From: an uncultured bacterium
Lineage (GTDB): Bacteria > Verrucomicrobiota > Kiritimatiellia > RFP12 > CAIWXQ01
Length of the DNA stretch: 64,000 nt
NCBI GenBank assembly: GCA_903861045.1
Contig: CAIOST010000191.1
Span: forward strand, 23,116-87,115
Reading direction: 5' to 3'
The position numbers and the translations under genes are program-made. Below are positions 36,378 to 64,000 of this stretch, in pieces. Position 1 is the first letter of the stretch, and every line of letters starts with the position of its first letter. The notes under the pieces are model-generated. The model searched no databases, was not told the DNA's origin, and worked only from the letters and a program-made list of their open reading frames with translations.

Positions 36378-36391
36378 GCCCCTATGCCGGT

Positions 36392-39300
36392 TTACGGCAT
36401 CAGCAGCGCCGCGCTCACTCGATAGAACGCGCCCGCCGGCGCACTCTCATCCGTAAAGCTACGCATCTGCGCCGCCTCGCCCGGTTGCGCCTGCAGCGTC
36501 CCCGCCACCACCCACTGGCTCAAGTTAGTGGACCGCCAGACCGTGTAGACGATCGGATAGATATACACGGTCGGCGAACGCCAAGACAACAATGGCGCTC
36601 CCAATGCTGAGGCCGTGATACCCGGAATCTCAAACAACTTCCCGTCGCCTAGGTAGGCATCGAGATCCCCGATATGTCCGCCGAGCGAGCATGGGCTGTG
36701 CGTGTTCAATCCCAGCGCCAGCTCCACTCCATCCGGCAGTCCATCGTAATCGCTATCCATCAAATTCGGGCTGGCATCCATCGGGCCATCGGCATAGTCC
36801 CGCCAGAGTGCATACCCCTTCCAGGTGATCTCCTCCCCACTATGGGCGGCAATCGAACCGAAGTTCTGCACCTCCCACGAATCGGGCAGCTTGTCGTTGT
36901 CCGTATCGCGATCGCGCAGCATGAGTTTTACCCCGGCGGCAGGCAGGACCGACGGCCCCACACTGAACGTACGGATCTCCTGATTCCCGGCGCCGTCATC
37001 CGGCACCTGGTTGCGCACAAACCCCCAGGTTTCAGGCGTGTTCAGCAATCCATCGCCATTCAGGTCCAAGAACCCTAGCAGCGCATAGTTGCCCGACGGC
37101 AAGCCGCTGAAGGTAAAGGCCCCCTTCTTTTGCAAGATGACCTGTGCCACCGGGCGACCGCTGAAGCCCGGCACATCCTGCACGCGGTAGGCCTGCACAA
37201 TGAACGGATTCCCATGGTAGTCGTAGGTTGCCAGGAAGTTATCGGTGTTGTTCGGCACCAACGGGAAGGCCACGGAGAGAATCTTACCGGACACGTAATC
37301 CACCGTGCACTGGCTGTTGAGCCATGCGGCGGATGAGTTGTTCGTGTCGACCCGCAGCGTCACGCTGGTAAGATTAGAGGTGATAGCCCCCACGTCCGTG
37401 AAGACAACCAGGTTCGAGGCCATGCCCGCGCGACTGAGGCGCAACGACAGCGTCCCCGCCGTCACGACACTGTTGGTCAGCGCCTTATTGCTGAACACCT
37501 TTATCGCCCCGCCCACCCCGTTGAACACCCGCTCATCGGTGGCATGGTTCGCGACCTTGCCAAAGTATTCCAGCGTACCGCTGATGCTATACGGACCCAT
37601 CACCGCCACCTGCTGCTGGCCATTGCCCGGCAGAGAGCTGCCGGTGGTATCCAGCACCACCCGCGACCAGGCCGTATAGCTGTCGCCTAGGATGTTCGGG
37701 TTGTTCTTGGGCGTAACACGCCAGTAGTACACGCCATCTGCCATACTCAGGAACCCGGGTTCGGCATATTGCGGCTTGTAGCAATAGTGCGCCACCCCCC
37801 CATCATCGCGATAGAACGGCGCGCGTATCACCGCGCTCAGGATCACCGGACCCGTCATGCTGGTCTGGCGCACTTCCAAGGCAAATGCAGCCACGTCATC
37901 CGCCGCCGTCCACTCGAACTGCAGCGGCAGGGTATGCACCGTCGCGTTCAGCGGCGCTATGATCGTGGGCGTATCAAAAGAGGCCGTCGTCCAGCGCTGC
38001 TGGAATGTCGCGTACGGGATGGAAGGCACAAACGTATCCAACCGCCCGCTCGGGTTATGCATCACCGACCACCGGTACTGCGGCACATAATCACCGCTCT
38101 TAGGGGGCGTACCCAGGCCGGTCAGTTTGCCAATATGAACCAGGTCGGCTTCGGTGACGTACGCACGTGGCGCGCGCAGCGTAATATCCGCCACGGTCGT
38201 ATATTGCGTCGAGCCGGCCTGCATCCAGATGTAATCAACCTGCACACGGCTGCTGGTCACCCCTTCCGGCAGGGTCCACTTGAGGCGCGGGAAGCCGATG
38301 GGCGCATCCTGGAGCATGAACTCGACGGCTACCGCGCTCCACCCCACCGTGACAGGTTGGTAGATGGCGTAGCCACAGGGCTCGCCTGCATTCCACGACC
38401 CACTGCCATCCACATCCATGTAGGCGAAGAACCAGTTCTGGCCCTCGCGCAGGCCGCCTTCCTCGATATCCGCCGCGCTCAAGGACACGGTCTGCACCGC
38501 GCCCGTCGGGCCAGGGGCGACAAAGATCGCGTCCGGCGTGCCATCGCGCAAGTCGGTCGTGTAGCTCTCGATGCGGATCTCGCCGGAAGCCTCCCCGCCG
38601 TACCAGATGGTGGCCACTAGCGCTGGCTGCGGCTTGACGCTCGCTGCCATGGGATCTGACCCGGACATGTACTCGCCGTAATTGGACCAGCCGTCCTTGT
38701 CGGGATCGTTCGCGGCCTCATACTCGTACGGCAGCAGGCCATGCTTCGCCTTCCAAGCCGGCGGCAGGCTGTCCATCGGTGTGTAGAGCTCACCGAAGGT
38801 TAGATCCTGATCGCTCCAGCGGTTGTCATAATCCAGGAAGCCGTTTCCGATGCTATCTGGCCGGCGCGGATCCGTACCTGCCAAATATTCGGCCGCATTG
38901 CAAAGGCCGTCATGATCCGGGTCACCCCATGTGCCATTGTTGTCATCCCCGCCAGACGGATCCAGACCGTACTGGTTTTCCCACCAGTCCGGCAAGCCAT
39001 CGCCATCGCTATCGGCATTGAACGGATAATCCGCCGTGGCATTCGCATTGGTGGTGAAGTAGACACCCGCGCCGAGTTTACCGGCGTAGGCATCGAAGGT
39101 AAACGGCTCCACCCCCATCCGATAGGTGAAGTCTTCCAGCGTGGTGCCACCATCGGTACAGGGGAACATACCGACCAGGGCGACGCGCTGCATGGAGAGC
39201 ATCGGATCCGTGGTAATCGGCACGCTGCCGATCAACCCACGCAAGACTCTGGCATCCGGAATGTAAACACCATACTCCGTATCTGGGTTGCGTAGCGCGG

Positions 39301-42300
39301 AGCGCTCATCCGCGGTAATGCCAACCTGGAAATCAAAGTTGAAATAGGTTACCAGCCCCCGCTCGTTCCCCGACAGATTCCGGGTTGCGAGACCGCTCAC
39401 CAACTTACCCTTGTCATCCAGGCCGGCCATTTCCGCAGAAGCTAACGCTCGGTTCCAGATCCGGATTTCGTCCATCTCACCGACCAAGGTCTCGCCGAAC
39501 ACGCAGGGACCGGCCGCCGCATTCACATACCAGAAGTTCATAGGATCCGGAATAATATTGGGGATATCCGGCATGTACATGCGCTCCTGCTTCGTATCCA
39601 ACAGGCCGTCCACGTAGAGATAACAAGCGTTGGCATCGCGAATGTACGCCACATGATGCCAATTACCGTCATTTACCGGGATCTCACCCTCAATGTCATT
39701 CACATTGAAATCAAGCCCAGACAGCCATTCGATGCCGTTGGCGCCGGTATGCCAGACGCCATACGCTAGTGCGTACCGCCCCAACAACGTCCCTTGCCCA
39801 GACAGGCCCAGGCAATAATTGAAGTTGTCGTCCGTCTCGTTGCTTTGACTACGACGGGTGATCAGACGCCCACCCCCAGCGGTGGTCTTTACCCAGCATT
39901 CCAACGTCCAATCCTCACGGAGCATATCGACTGAGTCCCCGTTGGGCAGCAGCGAGGTCGCCGTCTCTTTCAAATGCCCGTTACCACTCAATTGCAAACG
40001 GCCGGCCGTGGTGTTGCCACTCCCCACCAACAGGGTGGAAGCCCGGTTATCCGCGATGGACTGATCGTCCTGCGCGATCTTCCAGAGGCGGATATTGGTG
40101 AGCTTGCCACGGAAGCCCGGCCCACCGAAGATCACGTCACCGGGGCCAATGGCGGACTGCCAGCCCACAAACGTATTGGCCACCTTAACGCCATCCACGA
40201 AGAGAGCCAGTTCGTTATCCAAGCCGCTGTTACTGATCGTAAACCGGGCCGCCAAATGCACCCACTGGTTGGTCGCCAGCCTATTGCCCGGCAACAGGGT
40301 TGCCACCACGCTGGCTCCGCTCAGGTCCGTGTCAAAGGCCGCATACGGCACACCATTGGACAAGCCCAGCTCGTAGTTGCGCAGGTTCTTGTCATACGTG
40401 CGACGGCTAATCAGCGGCATAACCCCGGCCGCGATCGCATCCAGTTTGACGTAGGTCTCGATGGTCCACGCAGACATGCTGTGACGTGCGGTGAAGCGAT
40501 TATTGACCTTGTCCTGCACGGTCACGATGTTGCCGGTCGCCGCCCCCGTGAAGGCCAGCGTACGCAACATGAAGGGGCTGCTGGAGTCCGCCGGGTTCGT
40601 ATCCCCGCTCAACTCCGCGCCGTCGTTACGGCCGTCGTCGTCCGTATCGGCATTTCCCGGGTTGGTATGGGTCAGATCCTGTTCCACCCCATTCGAGATG
40701 CCGTCGCCATCGGCATCCTCATCGTAGTCGCTGATGCCGTTGTTGTTCGAGTCGGCCTGCAACGGATTGGTTCCCGCCAGATACTCATACAGGTTGCGCA
40801 GCCCGTCGCCATCCGGGTCGCCATCGGCGCTGTCATTACCAGACGCGCTAAACGGATCGAGCCCATTGGCGGTCTCCCACCAGTCCGGCAGACCGTCGCC
40901 ATCCGAGTCACCCGTGGTCTTCACTACTTCGCTCGTTGCCAGGACCGCCCCCGCCGAGAGTTGGCCGGCATAGCGCCAGTCGCGGCGCCAGTCGGCGGCC
41001 AGGGTGAAGTCTTCCACCGTCGTACCGCCATCGTCAAAGCGGAACCACCCCGCCAGACCGTTAACCACCACCGCGCCACCGCCGCCGCCACCGAGCTTGG
41101 GTAGAATGTTACCCACATTCAGGCGGCCGCCCGTGACGGTTTTACCCGCTAGGGCCGGATCGGGATCCACGTTATTCAGAATGGCGGCCTTCAACGCCGC
41201 ATAGCCCAGCCGGTTATCGACCGACAGCACCAGCGCCGCCGCGCCCACCACCTGCGGCGCGGCCATGGAGGTGCCGCTCGCCAGACCATTGGAGCGGCCC
41301 ATTTCCGAGCCACCCATCGGCAGGGTGCTCAGGATGTCCACGCCGGGCGCGCCCAGATCCACGGTCTGCGCCCCGTAGTTACTGAAGTAGGCCAGCGCAT
41401 CACGATTATCCGTTGCAGCCACGGCTATGATGTTGTCGAGGTCATACGAGGCGGGATAGGCCGGCGTCGCGTCGTTGTCATTCGCATCGTTAGCCGCAGC
41501 GGCCACGAACAAATGGTCGTTGTTGCCGGCGGTCAGAATGGCATCATACAGCGCCTGCGAGTACTGGTAGCCGGCCCAACTGTTATTGCTGACGCGTGCG
41601 CCCATCTTCCAGGCATATTCGATCGCGGCCAGCGCCGCCGACAGGCTCAACCCGCCTACGTTGTCAGCAATCTTTAGCGCCATAAGCTTGACGTTCCAGT
41701 TGACGCCGCAGAGGCCGGAGCCCTCGTTGCCGCTGGCGCCAATAATTCCCGCACAATGCGTGCCGTGGCCGATGAGATCATCCATCGGGTCGGCATCGCC
41801 GGCGCCAAAGTCGTAGCCGTAGACGTCGTCCACATAGCCGTTGCCGTCGTCGTCAATGCCGTTGCCTGCAATTTCGCCCGGGTTCTTCCACATGTTGTTC
41901 TTCAGATCCGGGTTGGTATAGTCAATGCCCGTGTCAATCACGGCCACGACCACCGAGCCCTTCCCGTGGCTAACATCCCACGCCGTCGGCGCATCGATAT
42001 CCGCACCGGCCACGCCGCCGCCCGGCCCATTGGTACCCAGGTTGCGCAGCGCCCACTGCTGGCGGAAGAGCGGGTCATTCGGGGTGGTCTCGCAGAGTTG
42101 CAGGGCGTAGTTCTGCTCGACATACGCCACACGGCTGTCGGCGCGTAGCGCGGCCATCTTGGTCGCCAGGTCACTGCCGTCGGTGATCCGCACATGCAGC
42201 GCGGGTATGATGTTAAAGCTCTTAACCACGCTCACACCGGCAAACGACTGCGCCAGCGGCGCGACCGCCAGGCGTCCACCGGTTGGCTTCAACCCGATGA

Positions 42301-45300
42301 TCAGCTCATCCGCCGAAGCACCCGTGGCGAGCACCTGTGCGGAGGAACTCGCCTGCTGGCGACTGACCGCGGCGCTGGCGGCGGCGGTCGTGTTGCTGAA
42401 GCTCACCTGCTGCCCGCCGGCCATCTGCCGGATGGCGTCCCCGTTGTATGCAAACGCTGCGATGCGCACATCGTCGAGCAAGCCTTCGAAGCCGCTGGCC
42501 ACACCCACGCCGTTGGCGCTTAGGCGGCCACCACCGATGGTCAGCTCACCACCCAGCGCCATGTTCGCACCCGCGCCGGTCACCGGCGCCACATAGACAT
42601 CCTTGCGCCAAGCCACGAGCTCGCCGTTCACAAACAGCTTCAGCGCATTCGAGGCGGCCTGGTACGAGGCCGCCAGGTGCGTCCACTTTTGAGCAGCGAT
42701 CTCATCAAAGTGGTCCATGCCGTTTAACATCACCGTGCCGGCTTGGTTAGCCTCCACACGCATCTCGCCGGGCACGCCGTTGGTCAAGGTGCTGTACCTG
42801 ATATACGGCCGCAGCACGCCTGCCCGGTTCGCCACACCCAGTTCGTAATTTACCAGCCCATCGGTGAGCGTGCGCGCCACGATAATGCCCTCGGCACCAT
42901 TCGTCGGCCACACCCAGGCCGCCAGCGTGAACTGTTCATCCATGGCATGACGGGCCTGCGGCGGAACCAGCACACGGGCATTGCCGTCCAACGACAAGGA
43001 CCGATTGACCATCGGGCTAAGCGAGCTGAGCGGGTCCGTCATGCCCGGCGCCAGAATCGATGTGCCCATGACCTCTTGGTAGTCAGGCGTTCCGTCATCA
43101 TCCGTGTCGGCGAGATCCGGCATGGTCCCGAGTTGCTGTTCCAAGCCATTGGAGAGGCCGTCGCCATCCGCATCCAGCTCAGCATCGGCCACCAACCCGC
43201 CAAAGGTGGCGGCGGCCAGCGGATTGAGCCGGGCCCGGTATTCGTAGTAATTGTTCAACCCATCGCCGTCGGCATCATCCGCGCCCGTGTACGTCGAAAT
43301 CGAGCCAAACGCGGCGATCTCCCAGGCGTCGGGTAGTTCATCCGAGTCCTGGTCCACAAACTGCGTTGCCGCGATAGGTGTATGGGTGCTAACCAGCAGC
43401 GCATCACCAATCAACTCGCCAGCATGCGCCCAGTTGTTCAGCCAGTCGGCCCGCGGGGCCGCAAAGTCCTCCACCCGGTTGATTGCCAAACCGAAGGCGT
43501 TGGTCGTGGAGCTGACGCCAAACGGCCCGTCGTCGAAGCGATAGTAAAGCGCGGGACCATTAACCATATTCTCGTAGGTTTGGTACGCGCCGGCCGACAG
43601 GCTCGCCACGCTCTCAGCCACCGCCCAGATGCGAACTTCATCCAGCAGGCCGCAGAAGCCTTCGCCCACCCGCACCACAGGCGCGGCGGAACCGTACGCC
43701 AATGACGGCAGCACTTCCACCGCGGTTTGCGCCGCCAGTCGCCCATCGAGGTAGAGGCGCAGCTTGCCGGCGTCGGCATCATAGACACCCGCCAAGTGGT
43801 ACCACTGGTTACTGCGGCTCAGGGTCGTCGCCCCCTGCGCGATCCGGTTATATAGCACACCGTGGAACACACCCGCCAACCGCACATACGGCAAGTGGTT
43901 GGTAAAGCCTAGCTCATAGTTAACCGTTGTACCCAGCCCGCGCTGGATCACGCAGCCATTGCCCGGGAAGGCCGGATCCGGATTCACCCACGCTTCCACG
44001 GTCCAAGAGCCATTCAACGCCAGACGGGTTTGATTGACAGGCAGTTTCACATACCCCGTTCCCGACAGCATGAGCGCTCCGCTCTTGGCCGGCGACAGCG
44101 ACGCATTCGGCAGCGTAAACTGATGCGCCGTGGTGCCACGCACCTCATCAAAGTCGGAGATACCATCATCATCGGTATCCGCCAGCAACGGATGCAGACC
44201 ATAGCGTTCCTTCTCCGCGTTGGTCAAGCCGTTGGTCGTTCCCATCGCCCAATAGACCGGCGCCAGCTCGCTCCCCAGCAGTTGCCCGGTAGGCTGCCAA
44301 ACCGGATCACGCGGATCCTGCCGCAACTTGCCATCGGCATCCATCAGGTAGATATAGGCCACCGAGACGCCGCTGCTCGAGAGGTCGCGCGCGCCATCTT
44401 GCACGCCATCGCCGAAGCTGTCGCTGCTGTACGGGTTCAAGCCATACTGGATTTCCCACCAGTCCGCCAGTCCGTCACCATCACTATCCAGCGTGCCCGG
44501 CAGCTCACTGGCATCCGTACCGAAGTTGCCGAAGAAGGTGGCGCCGCCCACCAGCGTGCCGGCATGGATCCAGTGGTTGGCCCAATCGGCAGTGACGGCC
44601 GCGTTCTGCACCTGACCACCCTGCGCCCAGCCCTGACGACCGCTGCCGTAGTAGGTGGCGGCGGCATAAATATGATTGGTTACGCGCGCGTCCGCGGCCG
44701 CCGTGTTGTCGTCGAAGTGGTACTCCAGCACCGGGACCGACCCGCCACGCACCACCACATCATCCAACATACCCGCAAAGCCACGACCGATACGTAACGC
44801 CGCCGGTCCCAGCGCCATCGTCAGCGGCCGCAGTTCCGTGATCGCGGCTGCGACCAGTGCCTGCGGAGCCACCGCACTCCCTTGGTAGAGGGAAAGCTTC
44901 CCGCTGGTGGCATCGAAGATCGCCCGCACCACGCCCCACTGATTAGCCGGCAACGCGGATAGCTCCGGCGCCGTCAGCGTCACATTGGTGGTGGGTGTCG
45001 CGAACTGAACAAACGGCACATAGTTGGACGTGAGGCCTAAGCAGTAGTTGTACCGTCCATCCGCCACCTGCCGCGCCACAATCTCTGCGGTGCCGCTTGG
45101 GCGACTGGTCGGGAAGACCCAAGCCGAGATATCGAACGAGCTCAACGCCTGCTGCGCGTCTGGTGCGGCCAGCACGTAGCTAGTGGGCTGCCCATCCAGC
45201 CGTAGCACGCTCGTCAGCGCTGGGCTCGCCGCATCAGCGCCGTCCATATCGTAGCGCACTTCTAGCGCATCCGTTAGGCCGTCGTCATCCGTATCCGCTA

Positions 45301-57300: not shown

Positions 57301-60300
57301 GATCCGGCAGCGTCGAGGAGATCGCAAAGATGGCTGAAACATCCACGCCGGGAGCCTCATCCCCATAGTTATTCCCGCCGGTATCCGAGAGTCGCACATA
57401 CGCGAACTGCTGGCCTGCGGTCGAGGGCACCTGGTCAATATCCACCGTCACACAACCATTACTCCCGAGGCCAAAGGTGCCCATGCGGGTCCAGACAATG
57501 CTGTCCGCGCTGATGTCCACTTTGACACCCGCTATAGCCCCCCCCATGAGGATCGCGAGATCGGGACTCCCGTCGCCGTTGCCAACCAGGAAGTTGTCCG
57601 TGAACTTCACCACCAGCGAACCACCTTCGCCGAGGCTAACAAATTGGTTGGTGGCGTCCGCCCAGTACTCGGGCACGCCGATGGCCAGCGCCGGATTGGT
57701 GTGTTTGTTAGTTGGGCCACCTTCGACATAGCTCACCACTTCGTCAGCGAAGGCGCGGTCCCCCAGCACGACGGTCATCAACCCGAAGGTCTTGCGTTGC
57801 ACATCCTCGGGCAGCACGATGCCGCCCTGCGAGCCGAAGCCCAACAAGCCGCCCATGCCATCGGCGATATCCGCCGCCGTCCGATCCACACCCCAGATCG
57901 CCACGTTATCCACGTGGCCGATGAGGCCCCCACCGATGACGGTCTGGCCAGTGCCTTGCGCACAGGCGGATATCACCGTCTGTGCCTGGTAGGCGCAGCC
58001 GTTGATATACAACACCAGCGTGTGCCGGTCCGGATCAAAAACGCCCGCCAGGTACGTCCAGGTATTGGCTGGCAGGGCCGCGGCATTCGTGCCGCCGGCG
58101 AAATAGTGCATCCCTGCCGCTGTCGTAAACTCGACCACCGGTTGATTATTCACCACACGCAGGGCGAAGTTCGTCTGGCCCGTCGTCAGCGTGCGAGCCA
58201 CCACGGTGCCGGTCTCGTTACTGCTGGCCAACTGCACCCAAGCCTCCAGCGTCCATGCCCCGACGTTGAAGCGCTCATCCTGCGGCACGGTGACGACCGT
58301 GCCATCCAGGACCAGAGAGCGCTGCACCAGCGGACTGCGGGCGTCCACCGGACTCGTGATCCGGCGCCCATCCGCCTTGACTACCAACGGATTGACCTCG
58401 TCGCCGTCCCCTACGCCATCATCGTCCGTGTCCATCAACCCGGGATTCGTACCGTACAGGTCCTGCTCCTCACCATTGCTCAGGCGATCCCCATCGGCAT
58501 CCTCGTCATAGTCACTGACCCCATCGCCATCCGTATCCCAGAAGAACGGATCCGTGCCCGCATAGTACTCTTGCAAGTTCGTCAGCCCATCGCCATCGGC
58601 ATCCGTTTGGCCATCCGAAGAACGGTTAGCGTCCAACCCAAAGTACATCTCAAACACATCTGGCATCCCATCGCCATCCGCATCCAGGCGCTGCGGATGC
58701 CCGGCCGGCAGCGACAACATCCAGTTGTAGAAATTCGGCACGTTGGTGGTGGCGCGCGACAAGTCCAACGGGTTGAGCGACACGAAGTCAATCGCGTTGG
58801 TGGTAGGCACCAGCGTGCCGCGGTATGCCGGTTGATCGGTATGGAGGAAATCCTCGACCGCGCCGACCCGGTTGGTGCCCCGCCCATCATCCATCGGCCA
58901 GTAGCCTGCCAACTCACTGCGCAAAACATCCAGCGGACGCATCAGCACCGGCGCATTCGCATCCGTATCCACCGGCAATTGGGCGCTGCCCATTAGCACA
59001 CCGAAGTTGCCACCGACCCGTGCATCTACATAAGGCAGACTGGTCGCTTTGATATTATCGAAGTCGAAGTAGAGCGCCAGCGCGTCCAGACTGGGCCGCT
59101 TGCCCAGTTCCGCCGCCACCTCGGCCGGCGCGCGTACACGACTATAAATCGCCACTTCGTCGATCAGGCCGCTGAAGCCACTGCCCATGGTCAGGCTCCC
59201 GCTGCCTGTCAGCGCCACGGGGGCCCCCGCCCAACCTAAGATCGCTGCCGGATCCGTGCCCCAAGTAATGCGCGGATCGAATACATTCGCGGGCGGGAAG
59301 CTCTCGCGCGCCATGATCCGGCCATTCACGACGACACTAATTTTGTTCCCGTCGAAGCTCACCATCAGATGCGCCCACTCATCCTGCTTCAGTTGCGCCG
59401 CCTGCGCCGTGAGCGTAAAGCTCGCCGGCACGTTGAAAACTTCCACCGTCGGCTCAGCCAGCAGATTAGCCAGCGGATCCGCCAGCAACGGCGGAGCCAC
59501 TTCCTGATACACGGGCGCGTAGAACCCAATGGTCAGCATGGGCTGACCGATGCCTGACAGGCCCAGTTGGTAGGCCGTCAAGTTATCTGAGTCCCGCCGC
59601 ATGATCACGCCGCCACCCGCCGCCGGCTTAACCCAAGCCTGCAACGTCCAGATCGGCAGCGCCACATCGGACGAATCGAACACGAGCAGATCGCCCCCCG
59701 ACGACGACAGACTACCAGCCCGCGCCACATCCGTACCGAAGGTCAAAACCTTGTCGCGCAGAGCCGCGATCTCATCATTGCCGCGCACCGTACGCCAGAT
59801 GCGCACTTCATCCAGATCACCCGCCAGATTCTTGGCCAGAATCAGATCGCCAGACTCCTTGCCGCTAGCCGGTAGCACATTCGCGATGACACGCGCGGCT
59901 TCGTTGGCACCCACAAAGACCGACAGCTTAACCGCGCCGCCCTCCTCGAGGGCTCCGAACCGCCCGGCAATGCTTATCCACGTATTAGTGGCGATCGCTA
60001 GCAGCGACTCCGCCTTATATTCGTTGCCGGCGGCATCTTGGAAGCGCACATACACATGACAATTCGTCGTAACGCCCAGCTCAAACGACACCAGACCGTT
60101 TGGCTCGCAATAGCGCCCGATCACGACCGCATTATTAGTCGGCGCTTGCTGCAAGCGGATCATGGCCTCCAAGGTCCACTGGGACAGGTCAAACCGACTG
60201 CCATTCGGATCCAGGCGACTGATATGGCCAGGTACCGCAATATACCCCGTGCCATCATTATGGATATAGCGCATCACGTACGGCGAACCCGGATCGACCG

Positions 60301-63300
60301 GATCGAAGCCCAGCGCCGTTTCCTGCTTATCCGAAAGCCCATCATCATCCGTGTCCGGATTACCCAAGTCCGTACCGTAGAAATCCTGCTCGTCGCGGTT
60401 GACGATCCCGTCGTTATCCGCGTCCTCCAGCCCGTCCGCCACGCCATCCTCATCACTATCCCCCTCGAGCGGGTTGGTGCCAGCGCGGTACTCGGAGATG
60501 TTCGACAACCCGTCACCGTCCGCATCGCCTTCGCGATCCGCGGCATCAAACGCGTTCAACACCTGCACGGTTGTCGCCGGCGTAGTAGCATTGGTGGAAC
60601 CGCTCGGCACGCCATGCGCGTACTGGTAGGCCAACTCCCAGCCATCCGGCAGACCGTCACCATCCGAATCAACATCAATCGTCAGATTTGCGGCCCGCAG
60701 GATGGCATCCATCTGGCTGCCGCGCAACCCGCTAGTAAACAGCCCGGCCGTGGTCTGGTCCGCCACGCGTGCGCCGTTGCGCAGGGTCGCCGCATTGGCC
60801 CAGCCGTTGCGCCAGTCCTGCGCATACGTGGTCACAAAGTCTTCCACCTCATGCCCGACGACGCCCGAGCCACTGACGCCATTGGTGTTGGCACCATCAT
60901 CAAACCGGTAATAGGCCACCAGTCCGCGCTCGGTCCCACGCAAAGCGACGGTGCGCTTGCTTTCAATCAGGCTCGCCGAGTTATTGGTGCTCCAGACCCG
61001 GACTTCGTCGATCAAGCCGACAAACCCGGCACCCACGCGCTGCTGCACGGCGCCCACCCCGGTCGCCAGCGTCTGCTGCGCCAGCGTGACACGCCCGGCT
61101 TCCGCGCCGTTTACATACAGTCGTAACTGGTGCGTGCCACACTCATACGTTGCCGCCAAATGCGTCCAAGCACTGGTCGAGACGCCCTCGGTCAGTGTGA
61201 GCAGCGGCGCCGACGCATCGCCATAGCCGCAGAACGGCTGGCGGTTGGCCGTCAACCCGAGGTAGTAGTTCATCACATCGGTGGCGACCTGACGGTAGAT
61301 CACGAAGCCGTTGGTGCTCCAGGTGTTGCTTGGCCACACCCAAGCTTCCACCGTCCAGTCCGTCAGGCCAAAGCGCGCCTGATCCGGCAGCTCAAGGTAG
61401 GCCCCCGCACCAGGCAGGCTCAAAGCCCGATAGGTCAGCGGATCCAAACTATTGGCCGGATCCGAACCGTTCTGTACTTCGACGCCATCCGCAATGCCAT
61501 CATCGTCGGTGTCCAAATAACCAGGATCCGTACCGAAGAGCGTCTGCTCATCGCGGTTGCTAAGGCCGTCGTGGTCCTCATCATCGGCCCCGTCTTTGAG
61601 GCCATCGCCATCGCTGTCCGGGTTCCTGGGGTTGGTGCCTGCATAGTACTCGAAGAGGTTGCTCAACCCATCGTTATCCAGGTCGCCATCTGGGCCATCC
61701 TCGCCCGACATGTTGCCTGGATCGAGATGGTACTTAACTTCATACCAGTCCAGCATGCCGTCGCCATCGCTATCCGGCACATACGGCCAGTTGGTGGGCG
61801 TGAGATCGATGAAGCGCACGTGGTTCGTGTCGATCTTCCGGGGGGAGGTGCCGGGTGTCGCACCCGCATAGGCCTCGAAGCTATAGGGCTCTACGCCGAG
61901 TCGATAGGTGAAGTCTTCCAGCAGTTGACCGCCATCATCAGCCGGGAACAGACCGACCAGGGCCACGCGCTGGAAGGTCAACAACGGATCGTAGGTGATC
62001 GGCGGGACATCCACGCGCCCCGTCATATTGGTCGCATCACCGATAAAGATGCCGTACTCCGACTCCGGATCGCGTACCACTGCGCGTTCATCCGCGACCT
62101 CCCGCAACTGGAAGTCGAAGTTGAAGTAGCTGATCAAGCCGCGCTCGGTGCCGGTCAGATTGTGGCTGCCCACCCCGCCGACGACATTGCCACGCTCATC
62201 AAATGTAGCCAACTCCGGCGACGGCAGCCCACGGTTCCAGATCCGGATCTCATCCATGGCACCGCTAAGATCCTCGCCAAAGATGCAGGGGCCGACCATG
62301 GCCCGCACCCATGCGGCGCCGACCCAGCCGACCGGCGGTTGCACCACCAACAGGCGTTCCTGCGTGGCGTCGAGCATGCCGTCGACATACAGGCGACAGC
62401 GCTCATTGTCGCGCACATAGGCCACGTGATGCCACTGGCCGTCGTTCACCGCGATTTCGCCGTGGATGTTATTCACATTGAAGTTGACTTCGATGTGGTC
62501 CAAAACCGGGATCGCATCAGCATTAAAGACCCAGACTTCCCACTCTGCCGCGAAGCGACCGAGCAGCGTGCCGTCGTCCTCAATGGCCAGGTAATAGTTG
62601 AAATCATCATCCGTGCGCTCGCTGATATTGCGCCGCAGGATCAGGCGGCCAGCCGCATCGGTCCGTACCCAGCACTCGAGCGTCCAGTTTTGGCGCAATA
62701 GATCCATCGGATCGCCATTGGACTGGAGCGTGGTCGAGTTCTCCTTGAGATGACCGCCGCCGTTGACCTCGAGGTAGCCTGCCAGCGAAGCCACGTTGCC
62801 GAATAGCAGGTTATGGCTCATGAACTCGCGGATCTGCAGATCCGACTGGGCCACCTTCCAGATCCGGATATCCCGTAGACAACCCGCAAAGCCGGCCGAA
62901 CCCAGCGTCAAGTCCCCGGCCCCCTGCACCGCGACCGCCGTAATCAAGCGACCCGCTACCGGCGTCCCATTAACCAAGAGCGTGGCCAGCCCTTTCACGG
63001 CGTCGAAGCGGCCCACCAAGTGGCTCCACTCGTGGACCGGTAGCGCTGTGCCACCTACCAACCAAATCGTCGTGTTGTTCGTCGCACCATTCTGCGCCAA
63101 ATCGGCGTCAAACCGCAGATAGGGCCGCCCGTTGGTCAACCCGATTTCATAGTTGAGCTTGCCCGTCAGCTCGACCTTGCGGCTGATGATCGGGCAGAGG
63201 CCGGCGGTCGCTGAATTCGTGAACTCAGGCCGGACGGCGGCCTCGATGGTGAAGGTGTCGAGGCTCAGGCGCGCGGTACTCCGACCATTGATCTTATCGG

Positions 63301-64000
63301 CCACCACCAGCGTGTTGCTGGCACCACCGGTGCCGTCGAACTGGAGCGCACGGAAGACATACGGACTGGTCGACTTGATCGGGTCGGTACCATCCAGGAG
63401 TTCCTCTCCGTCCGCGATACCGTCGTCGTCGGTGTCGGCCTTAGCCGGATTCGTATGGTAGAGCTCCTGTTCATTGCCGTTCGAAACACCGTCGTTGTCA
63501 AAGTCCTCGTCGTAATCGCTGATGCCGTCGAGGTCAGTGTCGGCCACGAATGGATGCGTCCCTGATAGGAACTCATAAAGGTTGCTAAGCCCGTCGTGAT
63601 CCGAATCGCTATCCGCGCCATTGGGATCGGTATCGGAGAGCGGATCAAGACCCATGGCCTCTTCCCACCAGTCCGGCAGGGCATCGGCGTCCGTGTCGCC
63701 CATCGGTACGTAGTAGTTAGCGCGCGTGACTGTGGCGCCACCCTGCAGGCGGCCGGCGTGCGCCCAGCCGTACTTCCAGTCGCTGTTGACCGTAAAGTCC
63801 TCCACCGACATGCCACCGTCATCGAAGCGGAAGTTAGCGGTAAGTCCAGCGGCGGTGCCTGGCCCCGTCGCGCCCTTCTTGATGATATTGCCGACATTGA
63901 GGCGGCCACCCGTAACCGTCTTGCCGTCCAGCGCGGCGACGGCATCCACACCGCCGAGCAGCGTCGCCTTAACAGCGTCATAGCTGAGCGTCGGCTCGAC
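36392..64000 (-). CDS. giant multi-domain LamG/TSP3/subtilase polyprotein, 3' portion (>=9185 codons; N-terminus beyond right edge)
   Basis: Single stop-free reading frame across 27.6 kb. About 20 LamG_3-like units end in L(D/E)EVRIW, with clustered DxDxDGxxDxxE thrombospondin-type-3 Ca-binding repeats between them. Embedded I9+S8 module at 41110-42340. The first codons in the window are an S8 C-terminal tail, so the gene continues upstream. Confidence 0.85.
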   Translation of the reverse strand, partial: VEPTLSYDAVKATLLGGVDAVAALDGKTVTGGRLNVGNIIKKGATGPGTAAGLTANFRFDDGGMSVEDFTVNSDWKYGWAHAGRLQGGATVTRANYYVPMGDTDADALPDWWEEAMGLDPLSDTDPNGADSDSDHDGLSNLYEFLSGTHPFVADTDLDGISDYDEDFDNDGVSNGNEQELYHTNPAKADTDDDGIADGEELLDGTDPIKSTSPYVFRALQFDGTGGASNTLVVADKINGRSTARLSLDTFTIEAAVRPEFTNSATAGLCPIISRKVELTGKLNYEIGLTNGRPYLRFDADLAQNGATNNTTIWLVGGTALPVHEWSHLVGRFDAVKGLATLLVNGTPVAGRLITAVAVQGAGDLTLGSAGFAGCLRDIRIWKVAQSDLQIREFMSHNLLFGNVASLAGYLEVNGGGHLKENSTTLQSNGDPMDLLRQNWTLECWVRTDAAGRLILRRNISERTDDDFNYYLAIEDDGTLLGRFAAEWEVWVFNADAIPVLDHIEVNFNVNNIHGEIAVNDGQWHHVAYVRDNERCRLYVDGMLDATQERLLVVQPPVGWVGAAWVRAMVGPCIFGEDLSGAMDEIRIWNRGLPSPELATFDERGNVVGGVGSHNLTGTERGLISYFNFDFQLREVADERAVVRDPESEYGIFIGDATNMTGRVDVPPITYDPLLTFQRVALVGLFPADDGGQLLEDFTYRLGVEPYSFEAYAGATPGTSPRKIDTNHVRFIDLTPTNWPYVPDSDGDGMLDWYEVKYHLDPGNMSGEDGPDGDLDNDGLSNLFEYYAGTNPRNPDSDGDGLKDGADDEDHDGLSNRDEQTLFGTDPGYLDTDDDGIADGVEVQNGSDPANSLDPLTYRALSLPGAGAYLELPDQARFGLTDWTVEAWVWPSNTWSTNGFVIYRQVATDVMNYYLGLTANRQPFCGYGDASAPLLTLTEGVSTSAWTHLAATYECGTHQLRLYVNGAEAGRVTLAQQTLATGVGAVQQRVGAGFVGLIDEVRVWSTNNSASLIESKRTVALRGTERGLVAYYRFDDGANTNGVSGSGVVGHEVEDFVTTYAQDWRNGWANAATLRNGARVADQTTAGLFTSGLRGSQMDAILRAANLTIDVDSDGDGLPDGWELAYQYAHGVPSGSTNATTPATTVQVLNAFDAADREGDADGDGLSNISEYRAGTNPLEGDSDEDGVADGLEDADNDGIVNRDEQDFYGTDLGNPDTDDDGLSDKQETALGFDPVDPGSPYVMRYIHNDGTGYIAVPGHISRLDPNGSRFDLSQWTLEAMIRLQQAPTNNAVVIGRYCEPNGLVSFELGVTTNCHVYVRFQDAAGNEYKAESLLAIATNTWISIAGRFGALEEGGAVKLSVFVGANEAARVIANVLPASGKESGDLILAKNLAGDLDEVRIWRTVRGNDEIAALRDKVLTFGTDVARAGSLSSSGGDLLVFDSSDVALPIWTLQAWVKPAAGGGVIMRRDSDNLTAYQLGLSGIGQPMLTIGFYAPVYQEVAPPLLADPLANLLAEPTVEVFNVPASFTLTAQAAQLKQDEWAHLMVSFDGNKISVVVNGRIMARESFPPANVFDPRITWGTDPAAILGWAGAPVALTGSGSLTMGSGFSGLIDEVAIYSRVRAPAEVAAELGKRPSLDALALYFDFDNIKATSLPYVDARVGGNFGVLMGSAQLPVDTDANAPVLMRPLDVLRSELAGYWPMDDGRGTNRVGAVEDFLHTDQPAYRGTLVPTTNAIDFVSLNPLDLSRATTNVPNFYNWMLSLPAGHPQRLDADGDGMPDVFEMYFGLDANRSSDGQTDADGDGLTNLQEYYAGTDPFFWDTDGDGVSDYDEDADGDRLSNGEEQDLYGTNPGLMDTDDDGVGDGDEVNPLVVKADGRRITSPVDARSPLVQRSLVLDGTVVTVPQDERFNVGAWTLEAWVQLASSNETGTVVARTLTTGQTNFALRVVNNQPVVEFTTAAGMHYFAGGTNAAALPANTWTYLAGVFDPDRHTLVLYINGCAYQAQTVISACAQGTGQTVIGGGLIGHVDNVAIWGVDRTAADIADGMGGLLGFGSQGGIVLPEDVQRKTFGLMTVVLGDRAFADEVVSYVEGGPTNKHTNPALAIGVPEYWADATNQFVSLGEGGSLVVKFTDNFLVGNGDGSPDLAILMGGAIAGVKVDISADSIVWTRMGTFGLGSNGCVTVDIDQVPSTAGQQFAYVRLSDTGGNNYGDEAPGVDVSAIFAISSTLPDRPLAWYTFDDGGTSAEDFTHRLEWQYAISTTNVTSSTFADFAGELDLDHDGLPDWWEKLYFADGATPTGDSDHDGLNNLYEFYSDTNPMAGDTDNDGVLDAVEDFDGDGLSNGDEQVEGSDPRLPDTDDDGVLDGDELYTSPASALAPLLDRVLVVDGASTSYVELPPQLRFAATNWTIEAWICPTSLPATTATIIGRSVEPGVWNYFLGMDTAGRLVTKFTAGNHVADVGICYSNALSTGVWTHVAASFNSGSGYLNITVNGVVEQELYVSKTDAQNGVGPISTVVGESFAGYLDEVKIWNVCRPAPSLAKLATPITGMSTGLVAYLRFDDGTSTNTSRKVGWNTGQVEDFMCPQDWKTGWRHAGTLRGGAAMVLNPASGPVRDSLGDSDGDGLPNGWEVFYGLNSRSSGGADGANGDPDGDGLSNLYEYWAGTDPRIVDSDGNGTVDGLEDADGDGLSNAEEQRHQTRPDMVDTDDDGLSDGDELNMGTDPRSSISPYVMRYVQNETGSGVLTVDGIIPGKDETGERFNLETWTIEAGVRLRQLPSESKTNVILIQRKAGLSGYVTFELGIDTNNLPYARFQSDLGREYKVSSWRPMVTGEWVSLSARLASGGQDQHRQLDLFYQTVWTATQLPADVHPVLGKQNVPLAIGTNLRGDVDEVRIWTVGRTDAEITKLRNRTLLFGEDVATLGVLSLTNGFLQRNTQDKVRLSRWTIQSWFKTTRGGTIVQREAGLADDAKPIYNYKVDITPEGNVEASFDFKAYVQPNRGWYYWYGNNNMARWATVKLTSSTTLGDGNWHFVSFSFDGKDAALYVDGMVQDVITMDTENDLPNMAAVTWHMAPNEGDRPGGYTKFGNYNPYYYYWYWYDFGYNLNPDTADTFSLATQDGLFTIGNKFVGILDEIRVFDQGMSVDAVAATQYRKASPTDPHLAAYFDFDDVGVAKPDSIMDKTGTGAFTYLIDAVAVGNGANVNAPVQYSPIEVVGYKLAGYWPMDDGAYAGRTRGQVEDFIHRMDFSYAGTFSHTNAIHFVDVTDDDSLLGVDSDRDGMPDWFEALYNLDPNSSQSLDHPEITSSGDLDGDGLSNYYEYLSGTDPRSRDSNSDGIPDNREDYDGDGLDNATEQVFGSDPRLADSDDDGIDDQTEVLNHWNPGLSTSPLVDRVLHLDGAATGGVQLPSQARFELPSWTVEAWICPTGWTSGAKLISSLAASNAYNYSLGLSASGQVQAQFTSYDKSASVSLTYTNPLYLNEWRHVLAAFDADTGRLWLEVDGEIVADMVTTKRPALNGLGFPVTTVGAGFAGYMDEVRIWSLYPGARSLGALRQIQLEPPSTMIAYLRFDDGTAYQGGATGTSLCPTWSHGQVEDFTKPSDQNSGWANAGTLLGNARSVDAPLGAPINPTLLDYDQDGMPNGWEASHGLNPYDTKGENGPAGDPDGDGLSNLYEYLAGTDPHAVNTGATGVSDALKDSDGDGLSNIDEQTRGTNPGRRDTDDDGLTDSEEVAMGTDPLNSLSPYVMRYIRNENGNGTITVPASVPGTDEVGERFNLATWTVEATVRLNQLPSATGKNAILVQRRARVGGADYVTFELGIGTNNLPYTRFESDRGVEYKVEAGADRVLATNVWTTLTARLGKEAGEAETKLDLSFQGNALSRVITEATPALGRQYRPLVMATNLCGDLQEVRIWNVARPYGEIARLRDRTLLFGEDVAALGVLALDGSGWMTRGDQRDVALNQWTVSAWFKTTQAGTIIDRDSGSGDDGQPISNYRLSVDADGFAQATFAFQARVDAGWGYYWGWDEAVYRWATATLQGDITVADGEWHFMAFTFDGKDAAMSVDGIAQDAITIDPKNNLPAIGDVTWHMAAGDPAVPRKYLANNNNNYGLNNGWDYYGYSYWYGYWPSWGGNGYYGWNETDQPYYAATNAGLLTVGKKFVGDVDEIRIFDRGLTGSEIEAQRLTKILPSVPGLISYFDFDNVSLRGAKFVEDTAARVIYGTLVEGASVRYGSLVNAPIAYSPIQVLSSRLAAYWPMCDGMDPANRSGQVEDFVHLRDGNYAGTFSATTAIHFTYMDRQYLTNYVANVAAWANETPFRLDSDGDGMADWFEQRFNLDPDRIETVNHPEYAASYDLDGDGLSNLQEYLCGTDPRMPDSDHDGLVDGEEDSDGDGLSNAAEFALGSNPLNADTDDDGVSDGDEVNPSIYKADGRRITSPVCAASPAVSRSLVLTGTGVRDPVAGVSVGSADRFNLTNWTVECWINLASTNETGNLVAHVNAAGRLTLGLRVTHNIPAVQFETATGLLVQAGGTRSLPSNTWIHLAGTWSAEARSLSFYINGESYQAQQSLLPPAMGDGTLLVGEGVQGHLDELRCWNVVRSFDQIATYADQIAAYSASVAESNEFVGTFTPATYSGVYVQMGDRAFADAVVAYRDGGPNNQWTNTAAVLGAPDYINYLTGAQHGLALGQRGTVTLQFTDNALIGDGTVAPDLYVWGCNGEVEGVTLEISQDGEKWVTIGNIGGALSAVDIDASVAKGQIYRFVRLTDNGQNSYAMDDGAPGADFDAVAALSSVPLTANNLGLVARFSFDDGGLTAEDAMHPLDWQDALHGVTFTTNSFAPVFGDVDSDTDGLPDWWEQLFFGSLVAEPDGDEDGDGLCNLYEYYCDTNPKARDTDNNGVLDGDEDFDGDGLKNLDEQSHGSDPRLRDTDDDGKSDLEEKVAGYNPGSSLSPQVSRGLVLSGSATNYVAMPTLGERRFGVTNFTLEAWVRPVAGLNDACTLLYRELEPGVTNYFLGLDGNRRPVVGFGSNTLIAPLAIPAGTNWTHVAATYMVQGQYLRLYTNGVEVTNKICSHNPRTSGMGPVVQRIGQRFAGVLEEVRIWNVVRTAEEIAALRARVLTGAESGLVAYYRFDDGTSCQAGTVGTSMQAGWFTGQIEDFATNYRHDWRQNWRHAATLVGGATFTNFAAGEAPFVVDVDTDGDGMPDWWENLYTGCGLNPNDASGIAGADGDPDGDGISNIQEYLAGSNPCIPDVLTISPKPVTVQVGHSVTLTISRPASLAASNMSYQVLSSDTSLFTVNAESVTLAAGATNATITITGVALAEGMGLHDGVLTIGGQTVMVTVYNGLGLTLLLDVDTGGNVAAGDTVTMQVHRNRSVGSQEQPQAVYLLSSDPAALTVPEMVTIPAGFDDGYFPLTGVSVTSNVLVTAMAVGYPVAYMTLPVIPPTITTWQQGVQVSPVRLLAGQPSVFDLHRPITEVGAELALQVSVVGLTGTVTFLPQVPLISISLTPNALPPNVNWTSNLMLLVSGTWTNEIPVFVHNGRDNDFDGLTDETESLIRTDPLEPDSDGNGLGDYYEDFDGDGLSNGDEQDIFGTNPALTDTDDDGFADGEEVGARLSPSLAAYGVTNRVSGPADSLSPWIPRSLVLGATNVPNGYTVPGADRFTFTAVTRGGPVVTIAAPQDGAQIPVRYTAVQGSVATTTPLSHVRLYNNDLFVAELTLDAARAFDYTAIIRSGVNKLTVVAVDTEGLVGTASVTITGTFAPADIRVTQEWDQPGDLDTWLVDPLGRHMGWTARGPGLPADAGPNLRIPGSFLDIDDIPGTGPENITVARGFATTGVYNVWMDNYSNRSLPNSRVRVLIKEGQPGEKYVEFGPQSIPVSDGNGNNAQAWWHTTDITWPDGTMSPPGTPVSGSSDQTISDEGLGFNAAKGWTIEAWVKLGSASQSGAIARYLLVNGTQSFVAGISSNRPYLMVRGAGGAAYELLANALPTNAWVHLAFVYGEGRKAIRIHENGMLICAREMNESRNVQSGTLALDAPLVMGGATNRFTQAKLDDLRFWNLARSGGLISENMHAFVDGAVSLVAGYHFDDGGLTIEDMKHPNEAAYALTGPVDIVTDAKPGADGLWGTADDVAAGAGADGQNDAVTATDWAPVYGLRDADGNGLPDWFQQLYGVIDGSSDTDDDGLINLYEYWCGTNPLEKDTDGNGTPDGEEDFDRDGLNNAAEQAAGTDPRLADTDDDGLTDALEVRYDMDGADAASPALTSVLRLDGQPTSYVLAAPDAQQALSSFDISAWVFPTSRPSGTAEIVARQVADGRYNYCLGLTSNYVPFVQFATPTTNVTLTAPELSALPANQWGVVRAIFDATSGKLSLYQGSAVAPQALVAAAITELRPLTMALGPAALRIGRGFAGMLDDVVVRGGSVPVLEYHFDDNTAAADARVTNHIYAAATYYGSGRQGWAQGGQVQNAAVTADWANHWIHAGTLVGGATFFGNFGTDASELPGTLDSDGDGLADWWEIQYGLNPYSSDSFGDGVQDGARDLSSSGVSVAYIYLMDADGKLRQDPRDPVWQPTGQLLGSELAPVYWAMGTTNGLTNAEKERYGLHPLLADTDDDGISDFDEVRGTTAHQFTLPNASLSPAKSGALMLSGTGYVKLPVNQTRLALNGSWTVEAWVNPDPAFPGNGCVIQRGLGTTVNYELGFTNHLPYVRLAGVFHGVLYNRIAQGATTLSRSNQWYHLAGVYDADAGKLRLYLDGRLAAQTAVEVLPSLAYGSAAPVVRVGEGFCGLLDEVRIWAVAESVASLSAGAYQTYENMVNGPALYYRFDDGPFGVSSTTNAFGLAINRVEDFAAPRADWLNNWAHAGELIGDALLVSTHTPIAATQFVDQDSDELPDAWEIAAFGSISTYTGADDADGDGLNNYYEYRARLNPLAAATFGGLVADAELDADGDGLSNGLEQQLGTMPDLADTDDDGTPDYQEVMGTSILAPGMTDPLSSLSPMVNRSLSLDGNARVLVPPQARHAMDEQFTLAAWVWPTNGAEGIIVARTLTDGLVNYELGVANRAGVLRPYIRYSTLTNGVPGEMRVEANQAGTVMLNGMDHFDEIAAQKWTHLAASYQAASNALKLFVNGELVAWRKDVYVAPVTGAGANMALGGELTIGGGRLSANGVGVASGFEGLLDDVRIAAFAYNGDAIRQMAGGQQVSFSNTTAAASAAVSRQQASSSAQVLATGASADELIIGLKPTGGRLAVAPLAQSFAGVSVVKSFNIIPALHVRITDGSDLATKMAALRADSRVAYVEQNYALQLCETTPNDPLFRQQWALRNLGTNGPGGGVAGADIDAPTAWDVSHGKGSVVVAVIDTGIDYTNPDLKNNMWKNPGEIAGNGIDDDGNGYVDDVYGYDFGAGDADPMDDLIGHGTHCAGIIGASGNEGSGLCGVNWNVKLMALKIADNVGGLSLSAALAAIEYAWKMGARVSNNSWAGYQYSQALYDAILTAGNNDHLFVAAAANDANDNDATPAYPASYDLDNIIAVAATDNRDALAYFSNYGAQTVDLGAPGVDILSTLPMGGSEMGRSNGLASGTSMAAPQVVGAAALVLSVDNRLGYAALKAAILNNVDPDPALAGKTVTGGRLNVGNILPKLGGGGGGAVVVNGLAGWFRFDDGGTTVEDFTLAADWRRDWRYAGQLSAGAVLATSEVVKTTGDSDGDGLPDWWETANGLDPFSASGNDSADGDPDGDGLRNLYEYLAGTNPLQADSNNNGISDYDEDADGDGISNGVEQDLTHTNPGNADTDDDGRNDGAELSGDTNPADSSSPFMLRTLAFTGAATGNIVTVQDKVNNRFTARHSMSAWTIETYVKLDAIAAGVMPLISRRTYDKNLRNYELGLSNGVPYAAFDTDLSGASVVATLLPGNRLATNQWVHLAARFTISNSGLDNELALFVDGVKVANTFVGWQSAIGPGDVIFGGPGFRGKLTNIRLWKIAQDDQSIADNRASTLLVGSGNTTAGRLQLSGNGHLKETATSLLPNGDSVDMLREDWTLECWVKTTAGGGRLITRRSQSNETDDNFNYCLGLSGQGTLLGRYALAYGVWHTGANGIEWLSGLDFNVNDIEGEIPVNDGNWHHVAYIRDANACYLYVDGLLDTKQERMYMPDIPNIIPDPMNFWYVNAAAGPCVFGETLVGEMDEIRIWNRALASAEMAGLDDKGKLVSGLATRNLSGNERGLVTYFNFDFQVGITADERSALRNPDTEYGVYIPDARVLRGLIGSVPITTDPMLSMQRVALVGMFPCTDGGTTLEDFTYRMGVEPFTFDAYAGKLGAGVYFTTNANATADYPFNADSDGDGLPDWWENQYGLDPSGGDDNNGTWGDPDHDGLCNAAEYLAGTDPRRPDSIGNGFLDYDNRWSDQDLTFGELYTPMDSLPPAWKAKHGLLPYEYEAANDPDKDGWSNYGEYMSGSDPMAASVKPQPALVATIWYGGEASGEIRIESYTTDLRDGTPDAIFVAPGPTGAVQTVSLSAADIEEGGLREGQNWFFAYMDVDGSGSWNAGEPCGYAIYQPVTVGWSAVAVEFMLQDAPIGFPRLKWTLPEGVTSSRVQVDYIWMQAGSTQYTTVADITLRAPRAYVTEADLVHIGKLTGLGTPPKSGDYVPQYRWSVMHNPSGRLDTFVPSIPYATFQQRWTTASFDTPTIIAPLNATVHTLPLQFEWTAADDVAAFALEVRQTSMTGPVILSAVIRAPFYRDDGGVAHYCYKPQYAEPGFLSMADGVYYWRVTPKNNPNILGDSYTAWSRVVLDTTGSSLPGNGQQQVAVMGPYSISGTLEYFGKVANHATDERVFNGVGGAIKVFSNKALTNSVVTAGTLSLRLSRAGMASNLVVFTDVGAITSNLTSVTLRVDTNNSSAAWLNSQCTVDYVSGKILSVAFPLVPNNTDNFLATYDYHGNPFIVQAYRVQDVPGFSGRPVAQVILQKKGAFTFSGLPSGNYALLGFLDLNGDGLLNTPETWGFVRNQVPDDGAGNQEIRTFSVGPSVLPAAGVKLMLRDRDTDNDKLPDSWEVQNFGSIAAHSGEEITWKGYALWRDYADGPMDASPNLMDSDYDGLPDGVELALGLNTHSPCSLGGHIGDLDAYLGDGKLFEIPGITASALGAPLLSWRSPTVYIYPIVYTVWRSTNLSQWVVAGTLQAQPGEAAQMRSFTDESAPAGAFYRVSAALLMP
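41110..42100 (-). other. subtilisin-like S8 peptidase catalytic domain inside the giant ORF (catalytic triad intact)
   Basis: Asp box VAVIDTGIDY (~41925), His box GHGTHCAGIIGA (~41752), Ser box GTSMAAPQVVGAAAL (~41275), terminal GGRLNVGNIL (~41120). Confidence 0.85.
42110..42340 (-). other. subtilase propeptide (inhibitor I9-like) domain inside the giant ORF
   Basis: FAGVSVVKSFNIIPALHVRITDGSDLATKMAALRADSRVAYVEQNYALQL: classic propeptide fold ending in VAYVEQNY, directly upstream of the catalytic domain. Confidence 0.75.
46300..46700 (-). other. proprotein-convertase P-domain-like segment of the giant protein
   Basis: QEWDQPGDLDTWLVDPLGRHMGWTARGPG...GVYNVWMDNYS...SRVRVLIK resembles the DLxIxLxSPxGT P-domain core. 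Confidence 0.4.
47400..48250 (-). other. bacterial Ig-like (Big-type) domain region of the giant protein
   Basis: VLTISPKPVTVQVGHSVTLTIS...ATNATITITGVAL...VTMQV...TLPVIPPTITTW beta-strand periodicity typical of Big_2-like domains. Confidence 0.5.
63880..64000 (-). other. C-terminal tail of a second (upstream) S8 peptidase domain at the window edge
   Basis: Reverse complement of 63880-64000 reads VEPTLSYDAVKATLLGGVDAVAALDGKTVTGGRLNVGNII, near-identical to the end of the internal S8 domain (AALKAAILNNVDPDPALAGKTVTGGRLNVGNIL). Confidence 0.8.

Follow-up and report, generated by a model that had tools for sequence, protein, structure and literature searches.

Diverged copies of a protease-linked LamG cassette in a giant gene of an uncultured Kiritimatiellia bacterium

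When a giant bacterial gene carries the same long block of modules twice, was the second copy made in place or did it come from elsewhere? The question is raised by a stretch of 64,000 nucleotides from an uncultured bacterium (assembly GCA_903861045.1, contig CAIOST010000191.1, positions 23,116 to 87,115 of the forward strand), referred to below as the window, in which the minus strand of 36392..64000 is occupied by the 3' 27.6 kb of a giant open reading frame (ORF) of 9,202 codons plus stop whose 5' end lies beyond the window. Protein coordinates p are counted from the window edge, such that nt = 64000 - 3(p-1), and all features of the protein lie on the minus strand. A reading of the sequence alone had proposed that the block following each of two S8 (subtilase) protease domains is duplicated, and that the gene had grown by doubling whole cassettes of S8 domain and LamG block. 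We find that the two blocks, copy A at the window edge and copy B near the C-terminus, are genuine paralogs that diverged anciently. The account that we consider likely is that they are paralogs of a cassette found family-wide, B being the ancestral copy and A a diverged, constrained copy that derives, most parsimoniously, from a diverged member of the family.

The evidence for paralogy comes from comparison of the protein with itself. A BLASTP search with residues 1-800 against the whole protein gave one collinear high-scoring segment pair (HSP) to residues 7594-8387 (49.1% identity over 815 columns, 728 bits, E = 0), and longer query windows extended it to residues 1-803 versus 7594-8390 (733 bits). 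Copy A, truncated by the window edge, occupies 61592..64000 (residues 1-803, a single HSP to copy B), and copy B, delineated by BLASTP, alignment and Pfam, occupies 38831..41221 (residues 7594-8390) and comprises an S8 tail, a linker, TSP3 repeats, two LamG domains, a further module and TSP3 repeats again. The collinear diagonal that had been predicted between the two regions is present, and the blocks following the S8 sequences lie where the sequence-only reading had placed them (61717-63880 and 38905-41110), with a paralogy that extends slightly beyond those limits. The identity, put at ~60% in that reading, is lower, since a global MAFFT alignment gives 50% over 836 aligned columns, close to the BLASTP value. 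Similarity between the copies fades inside a TSP3 cluster, at residues ~803-854 in A and ~8390-8457 in B. It might be argued that A and B have no specific relationship and share only the background likeness to be found among many LamG and TSP3 modules, and indeed every TSP3-LamG unit of ~350 residues matches many others in the protein at 30-38% identity. However, the next-best internal partner of the copy A block attains only 30% identity and 285 bits, to be compared with 733 bits for copy B, and the A/B match is collinear across five types of module, among them the S8 tail and a 130-residue module found nowhere else in the window. We regard mere background likeness as extremely improbable.

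The divergence of the two copies is also evident in the DNA. Aligned by codons, the two copies share 57% of their nucleotides, and 42% of those at third positions, where 32% would be expected from base composition. With third positions this near to saturation and so low an identity the pair must be old, and not the product of a recent duplication. In the gene as a whole, internal DNA repeats of 160-680 bp reach at most ~74% identity, with one 71-bp patch of 84% as the exception, and none longer than 250 bp is above ~75%; the best-matching DNA patches within the gene are the TSP3 clusters.

These values also bear on the authenticity of the ORF. Repeat-rich giant genes misassemble readily and frameshifts are present in a related contig (L023), so that an artificial ORF with two cassettes might have resulted from the joining of two paralogous genes, or from repeats collapsed or expanded during assembly. 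The internal repeats just described are, however, too diverged to mislead an assembler, and a frame of 27.6 kb without an internal stop is not expected by chance at 61% G+C; its stop codon lies at 36392-36394 and there is no start within the window. Moreover, contig k141_12962 of an independent assembly (ENA ERZ27313541, 47,863 nt) is 99.994% identical to window positions 28800-46309, the region that can be compared, and encodes a giant-gene product of 13,402 amino acids that runs into the contig end. An assembly artefact is thus very unlikely. On the ENA contig the gene spans at least 40.2 kb and at least 13,402 codons, of which at least 4,200 lie upstream of the window, and as a single uninterrupted ORF it exceeds 20 kb both there and in the window (27.6 kb), the size above which Reva and Tuemmler reportedly surveyed 'giant genes' in 2008.

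The order of modules that had been read from the sequence is the same in both copies by alignment and by Pfam: an S8 tail (GKTVTGGRLNVGNI), a linker reading FRFDDGG..VEDFT, TSP3 repeats, two Laminin_G_3 domains, the YFNFDFQ module and then DSDGDG/TSP3. In copy A the TSP3 cluster, predicted to bind calcium, is found at residues 100-215 (63356..63703; Pfam TSP3_bac and motif map), the first LamG domain, A1, at residues 243-390 (62831..63274; Laminin_G_3, 48.6 bits with a cut-off of 27.6) and the second, A2, at residues 433-597 (62210..62704; 64.6 bits). Each block contains two Laminin_G_3 (PF13385) domains scoring 43-65 bits, again relative to a cut-off of 27.6, with many others along the protein, and the bacterial TSP3 family (PF18884) is recognized above its gathering threshold, with the D-x-D-x-D-G motif. 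A motif scan of the whole protein reveals ~20 TSP3 clusters alternating with LamG domains. The module of ~130 residues, 'YFNFDFQ ... LEDFTYR', is located in copy A at residues 612-740 (61781..62167) and is conserved across 16 family members, with neither a Pfam match nor a PDB sequence match in a profile search. Every column that is invariant across these 16 members is kept in copy A, which argues that this copy is not decaying and is still under constraint. AlphaFold models of the second LamG domain with the module (predicted local distance difference test score, pLDDT, of 32 from a 4-sequence alignment) and of the module alone (pLDDT 38, 16 sequences) were both unusable.

Does the repeated unit include the protease? 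The window contains one complete S8 domain, the subtilase catalytic domain that precedes copy B at residues 7306-7631 (41108..42085; Pfam Peptidase_S8 and alignment to PDB 3VV3). It scores 150 bits for PF00082, where the cut-off is 21.8, with the Pfam match spanning approximately residues 7349-7611, and has an intact triad in Asp-His-Ser order (D7356, H7412, S7578), establishing copy B as an S8 family member. Among solved structures it comes closest to deseasin MCP-01 (3VV3), a collagenolytic subtilase secreted by Pseudoalteromonas, to which it aligns from residue 7306 on with E = 3.5e-86 and with the DTG, HGTH and GTSMA motifs in register. The likeness includes the C-terminal '...GKTV.G.RLNV' strands, of which a second copy stands at the window edge. 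The catalytic domain is directly preceded by a propeptide of the I9/fervidolysin type at residues ~7215-7303 (42092..42358; Fervidolysin_NPro-like in Pfam), a region that is kept in orthologs and whose match to PF22148 (residues 7231-7297) is borderline, 21.2 bits with a cut-off of 21. At the window edge residues 1-38 (63887..64000) are the C-terminal tail of an S8 catalytic domain, residues 3-43 matching residues 7596-7636 of the internal S8 with an i-Evalue of 2e-8, and in copy B the equivalent segment aligns with the final strands of the 3VV3 catalytic domain. In one relative, P0144, the block is not adjacent to an S8 domain and there both the S8 tail and the FRFDDGG linker are missing as well. 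Because the tail is present in A and the tail and linker are absent from the S8-separated block of P0144, it is very likely that a full S8 domain lies just upstream of copy A, and very probable that the unit repeated is the S8 domain together with the LamG block.

In order to place the two copies, relatives were sought among 1.84 billion representative proteins. The family so obtained consists of giant proteins of 5.2-7.2 thousand amino acids (kaa) from Kiritimatiellia-like metagenome-assembled genomes (MAGs). In P0142, P0143, P0145-P0149, P0151, P0153, P0155, P0160 and P0163 a single S8 domain directly precedes a full block of ~760 residues. The complete orthologs that start with a signal peptide, P0142, P0145, P0146 and P0147, measure 5.3-6.0 kaa and have one S8 cassette each. 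The first of these is complete at 5,724 residues, and its residues 2060-5720 align with window residues 5544-9199 in one HSP of 63% identity over 3,704 columns. The N-terminal 1,584 residues of P0142 have no counterpart in the window and, conversely, window residues 1-5543, copy A included, have no counterpart in P0142 beyond generic modules. The conserved C-terminal core of the window gene, residues 5544-9202 (36395..47371), is seen also in L023, the contig that carries P0002, where a frameshifted ortholog is collinear with residues 5544-8736 at 46-50% identity. It ends in a tail of ~745 residues (8458-9202; 36395..38629) that follows copy B, is conserved in P0142, P0143 and P0146, is not matched by anything after copy A, can be assigned to no family and closes with '...FYRVSAALLMP'. 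Copy B would thus appear to be the ancestral copy, in its conserved position within a C-terminal core of ~3,660 residues, and we hold this to be likely.

More distant MAG proteins of 4.4-6.7 kaa (Kiritimatiellia, 'Verrucomicrobiota', Lentisphaerae) also have one embedded S8 domain followed by TSP3-LamG units, and among the relatives examined P0256, with two weaker S8 matches, is the exception. Relatives of the first 400 residues in genome contigs are at most 48% identical, the best match of a protein-guided metagenome scan is 50% identical and on a frameshifted contig of 1.9 kb, and an exact 30-mer from the window edge has no match among the metagenome contigs. A homologue search with the A block was dominated by TSP3 words and did not recover P0001 or P0002, making it uninformative on orthologs of the A type.

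The origin of copy A was addressed with a neighbour-joining tree of 16 blocks (701 columns, Kimura distances, 200 bootstraps). In 199 of the 200 bootstraps copy B joins P0142 and P0143, and in 167 copy A falls outside the clade of B, P0142, P0143, P0145-P0148 and P0002. Copy B is 54-60% identical to P0142, P0143, P0145-P0147 and P0002, 50% to P0148 and 50% to A. The outgroup blocks lie at the same distance from A as from B (0.42-0.45 identity), so that A is not merely the faster-evolving of the two. With B nested among the orthologs and A outside, A did not arise recently by the copying of B in place. What had been proposed, growth by duplication of whole cassettes, therefore holds in part: the copies are true paralogs that run into the end of an S8 domain, and the gene contains other large segmental paralogies, but the tree does not support A as a simple copy of B.

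The simplest form of that proposal would be that an ancestral cassette was doubled within the gene, that the copies then diverged and that the single-cassette relatives have lost the second. In its favor, a single ORF holds both copies, their collinearity extends through the S8 tail, the gene can clearly accommodate large duplications within itself, and both P0144, with its block apart from S8, and P0256, with two S8 matches, show that the number and arrangement of cassettes vary. Set against this, B is nested among the orthologs of other organisms while A lies outside, and the saturation of synonymous sites speaks against any recent event. As four complete orthologs have one S8 domain, an in-gene duplication must be older than their splits, and the second copy must then have been lost about three times independently, in the P0142/143, P0146/147 and P0145/148/P0002 lineages. 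We consider in-place duplication rather unlikely, although it retains some weight. Copy A is either an ancient duplicate that was lost several times in relatives or a capture from a diverged family member, and capture, which needs fewer events than a duplication with some three losses, is favored as the most parsimonious. On this view the cassette would have been acquired at TSP3 repeats when the gene recombined, or fused, with a diverged member of the family.

In 48662..61750 a BLASTP self-comparison shows three further long internal paralogies of 1.1-1.9 kaa, residues 751-2546 with 3285-5113 (40% identity, 1,920 columns), 1596-2674 with 4149-5252 (44%) and 2251-3545 with 3244-4598 (44%), several of whose ends lie in or beside TSP3 clusters. 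The region of copy A, at least 5.5 kaa and probably at least 7.7 kaa, thus probably consists of segmental repeats of ~1-2.5 kaa that are absent from the single-cassette orthologs. Because TSP3 clusters are the most DNA-similar patches of the gene, and because the A/B paralogy and several others end there, we propose that growth may have proceeded by in-frame unequal or ectopic recombination within these clusters. The ortholog baseline is what gives the locus its value in this regard, since it documents a giant gene more than doubling, from ~5.7 kaa to at least 13.4 kaa, by way of kilobase-scale segmental repeats joined at TSP3 clusters. One of the repeated segments, the whole protease-lectin cassette, predates the species split, and capture is hence likelier than in-place copying.

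As to function, TSP3 repeats are calcium binders and LamG domains lectin-like (concanavalin-like) binding modules, and subtilases normally cleave their own propeptide junction. The types of domain, together with the signal peptides of the orthologs, suggest an extracellular location. The protein may therefore be pictured as an extracellular filament, stiffened by Ca2+, that would display many lectin-like domains for the binding of glycans or particles and carry proteases in addition. Each propeptide-S8 unit might process itself at the propeptide junction, releasing large fragments, or the proteases might be activated in place. Cleavage near residue 7304-7306 would give a C-terminal fragment of ~1,900 residues with the protease, the block and the tail, and the second cassette would provide a second cut. 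In its fullest form this picture is of a self-processing 'polyprotein' of at least 13.4 kaa, in which each propeptide-S8 unit cuts its own junction to yield lectin-rich fragments and two active MCP-01-like proteases at the surface, the captured second cassette having added a release point; we offer it as a doubtful proposition only.

A number of points weigh against the overall account as presented here. The tree is a neighbour-joining tree on ~700 columns with an unfixed root and 83% bootstrap at the decisive split, and the choice of capture over ancient duplication with loss rests on parsimony over four complete orthologs. Of the S8 domain of copy A only 38-43 residues are seen, the remainder being upstream of the window, and the score of the propeptide preceding copy B is barely at threshold. 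Within the window there is no sign of a signal peptide, an anchor or a secretion signal, and autoprocessing, calcium binding and glycan binding are all deduced from the domains. Residues 8391-9202 gave no NCBIfam or Pfam match, including the PEP-CTERM, LPXTG and T9SS CTD sorting domains, and no HemolysinCabind or other RTX match was obtained in any chunk of the protein, the C-terminal 800 residues included, so that it does not conform to the RTX/type I-secreted adhesins such as LapA and MpIBP.

Comparison with known systems places the gene as a further member of an already known class, that of giant modular bacterial surface-protein genes. For giant proteins of Omnitrophota, in which S8 and C39 domains occur, cleavage into smaller polypeptides has been proposed and elongation by duplication of TSP3/dockerin repeats suggested (West-Roberts et al. 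2023, bioRxiv 10.1101/2023.11.21.568195). Our gene resembles these in its long single ORF, presumably extracellular modular product, bacterial TSP3 repeats, embedded S8 domain that may cleave the giant protein, and proposed growth through repeats. It differs in that the host belongs to Kiritimatiellia and not Omnitrophota, that LamG dominates where theirs have dockerin or discoidin, that its length is at least 13.4 kaa as opposed to at least 30 kaa, and that S8 is internal, has its own propeptide and is probably present twice. The giant surface proteins Giant1-5 of Apilactobacillus kunkeei (PMC12863079) are likewise extracellular and multi-kaa in size; their families arose as duplicated genes diverged and paralogs swapped modules. 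Their beta-solenoid folds are, however, unrelated, they come from a Gram-positive host and lack a protease cassette, and whole genes were duplicated there instead of segments within one gene. Also close is the uncharacterised 5.2-7.2 kaa family from Kiritimatiellia, 'Verrucomicrobiota' and Lentisphaerae MAGs described above (P0142, P0145-P0149, L002, L004-L007, L011 and others), which has the same propeptide-S8 unit with its block, the same C-terminal tail and a core collinear at 46-63% identity. Nearly all relatives examined have one S8 cassette, with the complete ones at ~5.3-6.0 kaa, in contrast to the window gene with its at least 13.4 kaa, second cassette and extra super-repeats. Deseasin MCP-01 occurs as a free-standing protease that also bears PPC and PKD domains, whereas the S8 domain here is embedded in a giant protein ~1,900 residues before its C-terminus, with TSP3 and LamG modules following it. 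S8 cleavage of giant proteins has been raised in the giant-gene literature without experimental test there, and the gene offers a concrete case in which to ask whether giant surface proteins are divided into functional parts by the pro-subtilases they contain. It is otherwise an ordinary modular surface protein of an uncultured bacterium of the PVC superphylum.

Several further features of the giant protein and its orthologs were observed. In the orthologs P0142, P0145, P0146 and P0149 the N-terminal ~1,600 residues consist of a signal peptide and a large region with an HEQGHE motif whose match to the M6 metalloprotease domain TIGR03296 is weak (30.7 bits, under the cut-off); by analogy the unseen N-terminus of the giant gene may carry a third, different protease. 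Paralogous LamG domains at residues ~3075-3110 (~54670-54780) and ~4095-4140 (~51580-51720) contain low-complexity insertions rich in Tyr, Trp, Gly and Asn (GNYNPYYYYWYWYDFGYNLNP and NNNNNYGLNNGWDYYGYSYWYGYWPSWGGNGYYGWNE), a composition unusual for a loop of a lectin fold. Two copies of a domain of ~190 residues ('MGDRAFADEVVSYVEGGP...') at residues ~2050-2235 and ~4640-4790 (~57300-57850 and ~49630-50080) belong to the paralogy of 1596-2674 with 4149-5252; the copy scanned (residues 2040-2260) had no Pfam match. At residues ~5250-5540 (47381-48253) are three Ig-like repeats ('LTISPKPVTVQVGHSVTLTI...'), likewise with no Pfam match, in a region that is 40% identical to residues 4791-5486 of the 7,192-residue relative P0144. 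Residues ~5675-5930 (~46200-47000) comprise a weak Big_7 / Glucodextran_B match and then a conserved 'DIRVTQEWDQPGDLDTWLVDPLGRHMGW' domain, which has no family assignment and is found in several complete orthologs, for example P0142, P0146, P0147 and P0149.

In contig L023 (CAZOJL010000044.1) the orthologous giant gene is split across three reading frames in positions 1-12053, and the annotation calls seven small minus-strand genes with no Pfam match over it, probably reflecting sequencing frameshifts and spurious gene calls. The notion that P0002 (1,998 residues) represents a stand-alone protease that was fused into the giant gene was rejected, as its sequence opens partway through a LamG domain and as the 6 kb upstream encode the same gene in two other frames.

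The other genes of the window are housekeeping genes, aroE, dnaX, recR, fabH, fabF, fusA, amt and tRNA-Leu, which establishes that the DNA around the giant gene is chromosomal, and the elongation factor EF-G encoded in the window is 85% identical to proteins named Kiritimatiellia bacterium. The giant gene is then a chromosomal gene of Kiritimatiellia (PVC superphylum) that encodes a giant modular, presumably secreted protein. The tRNA gene, tRNA-Leu(CAA), is located at 30612-30698 on the minus strand between fabH and neighbouring genes and is unrelated to the cassette.

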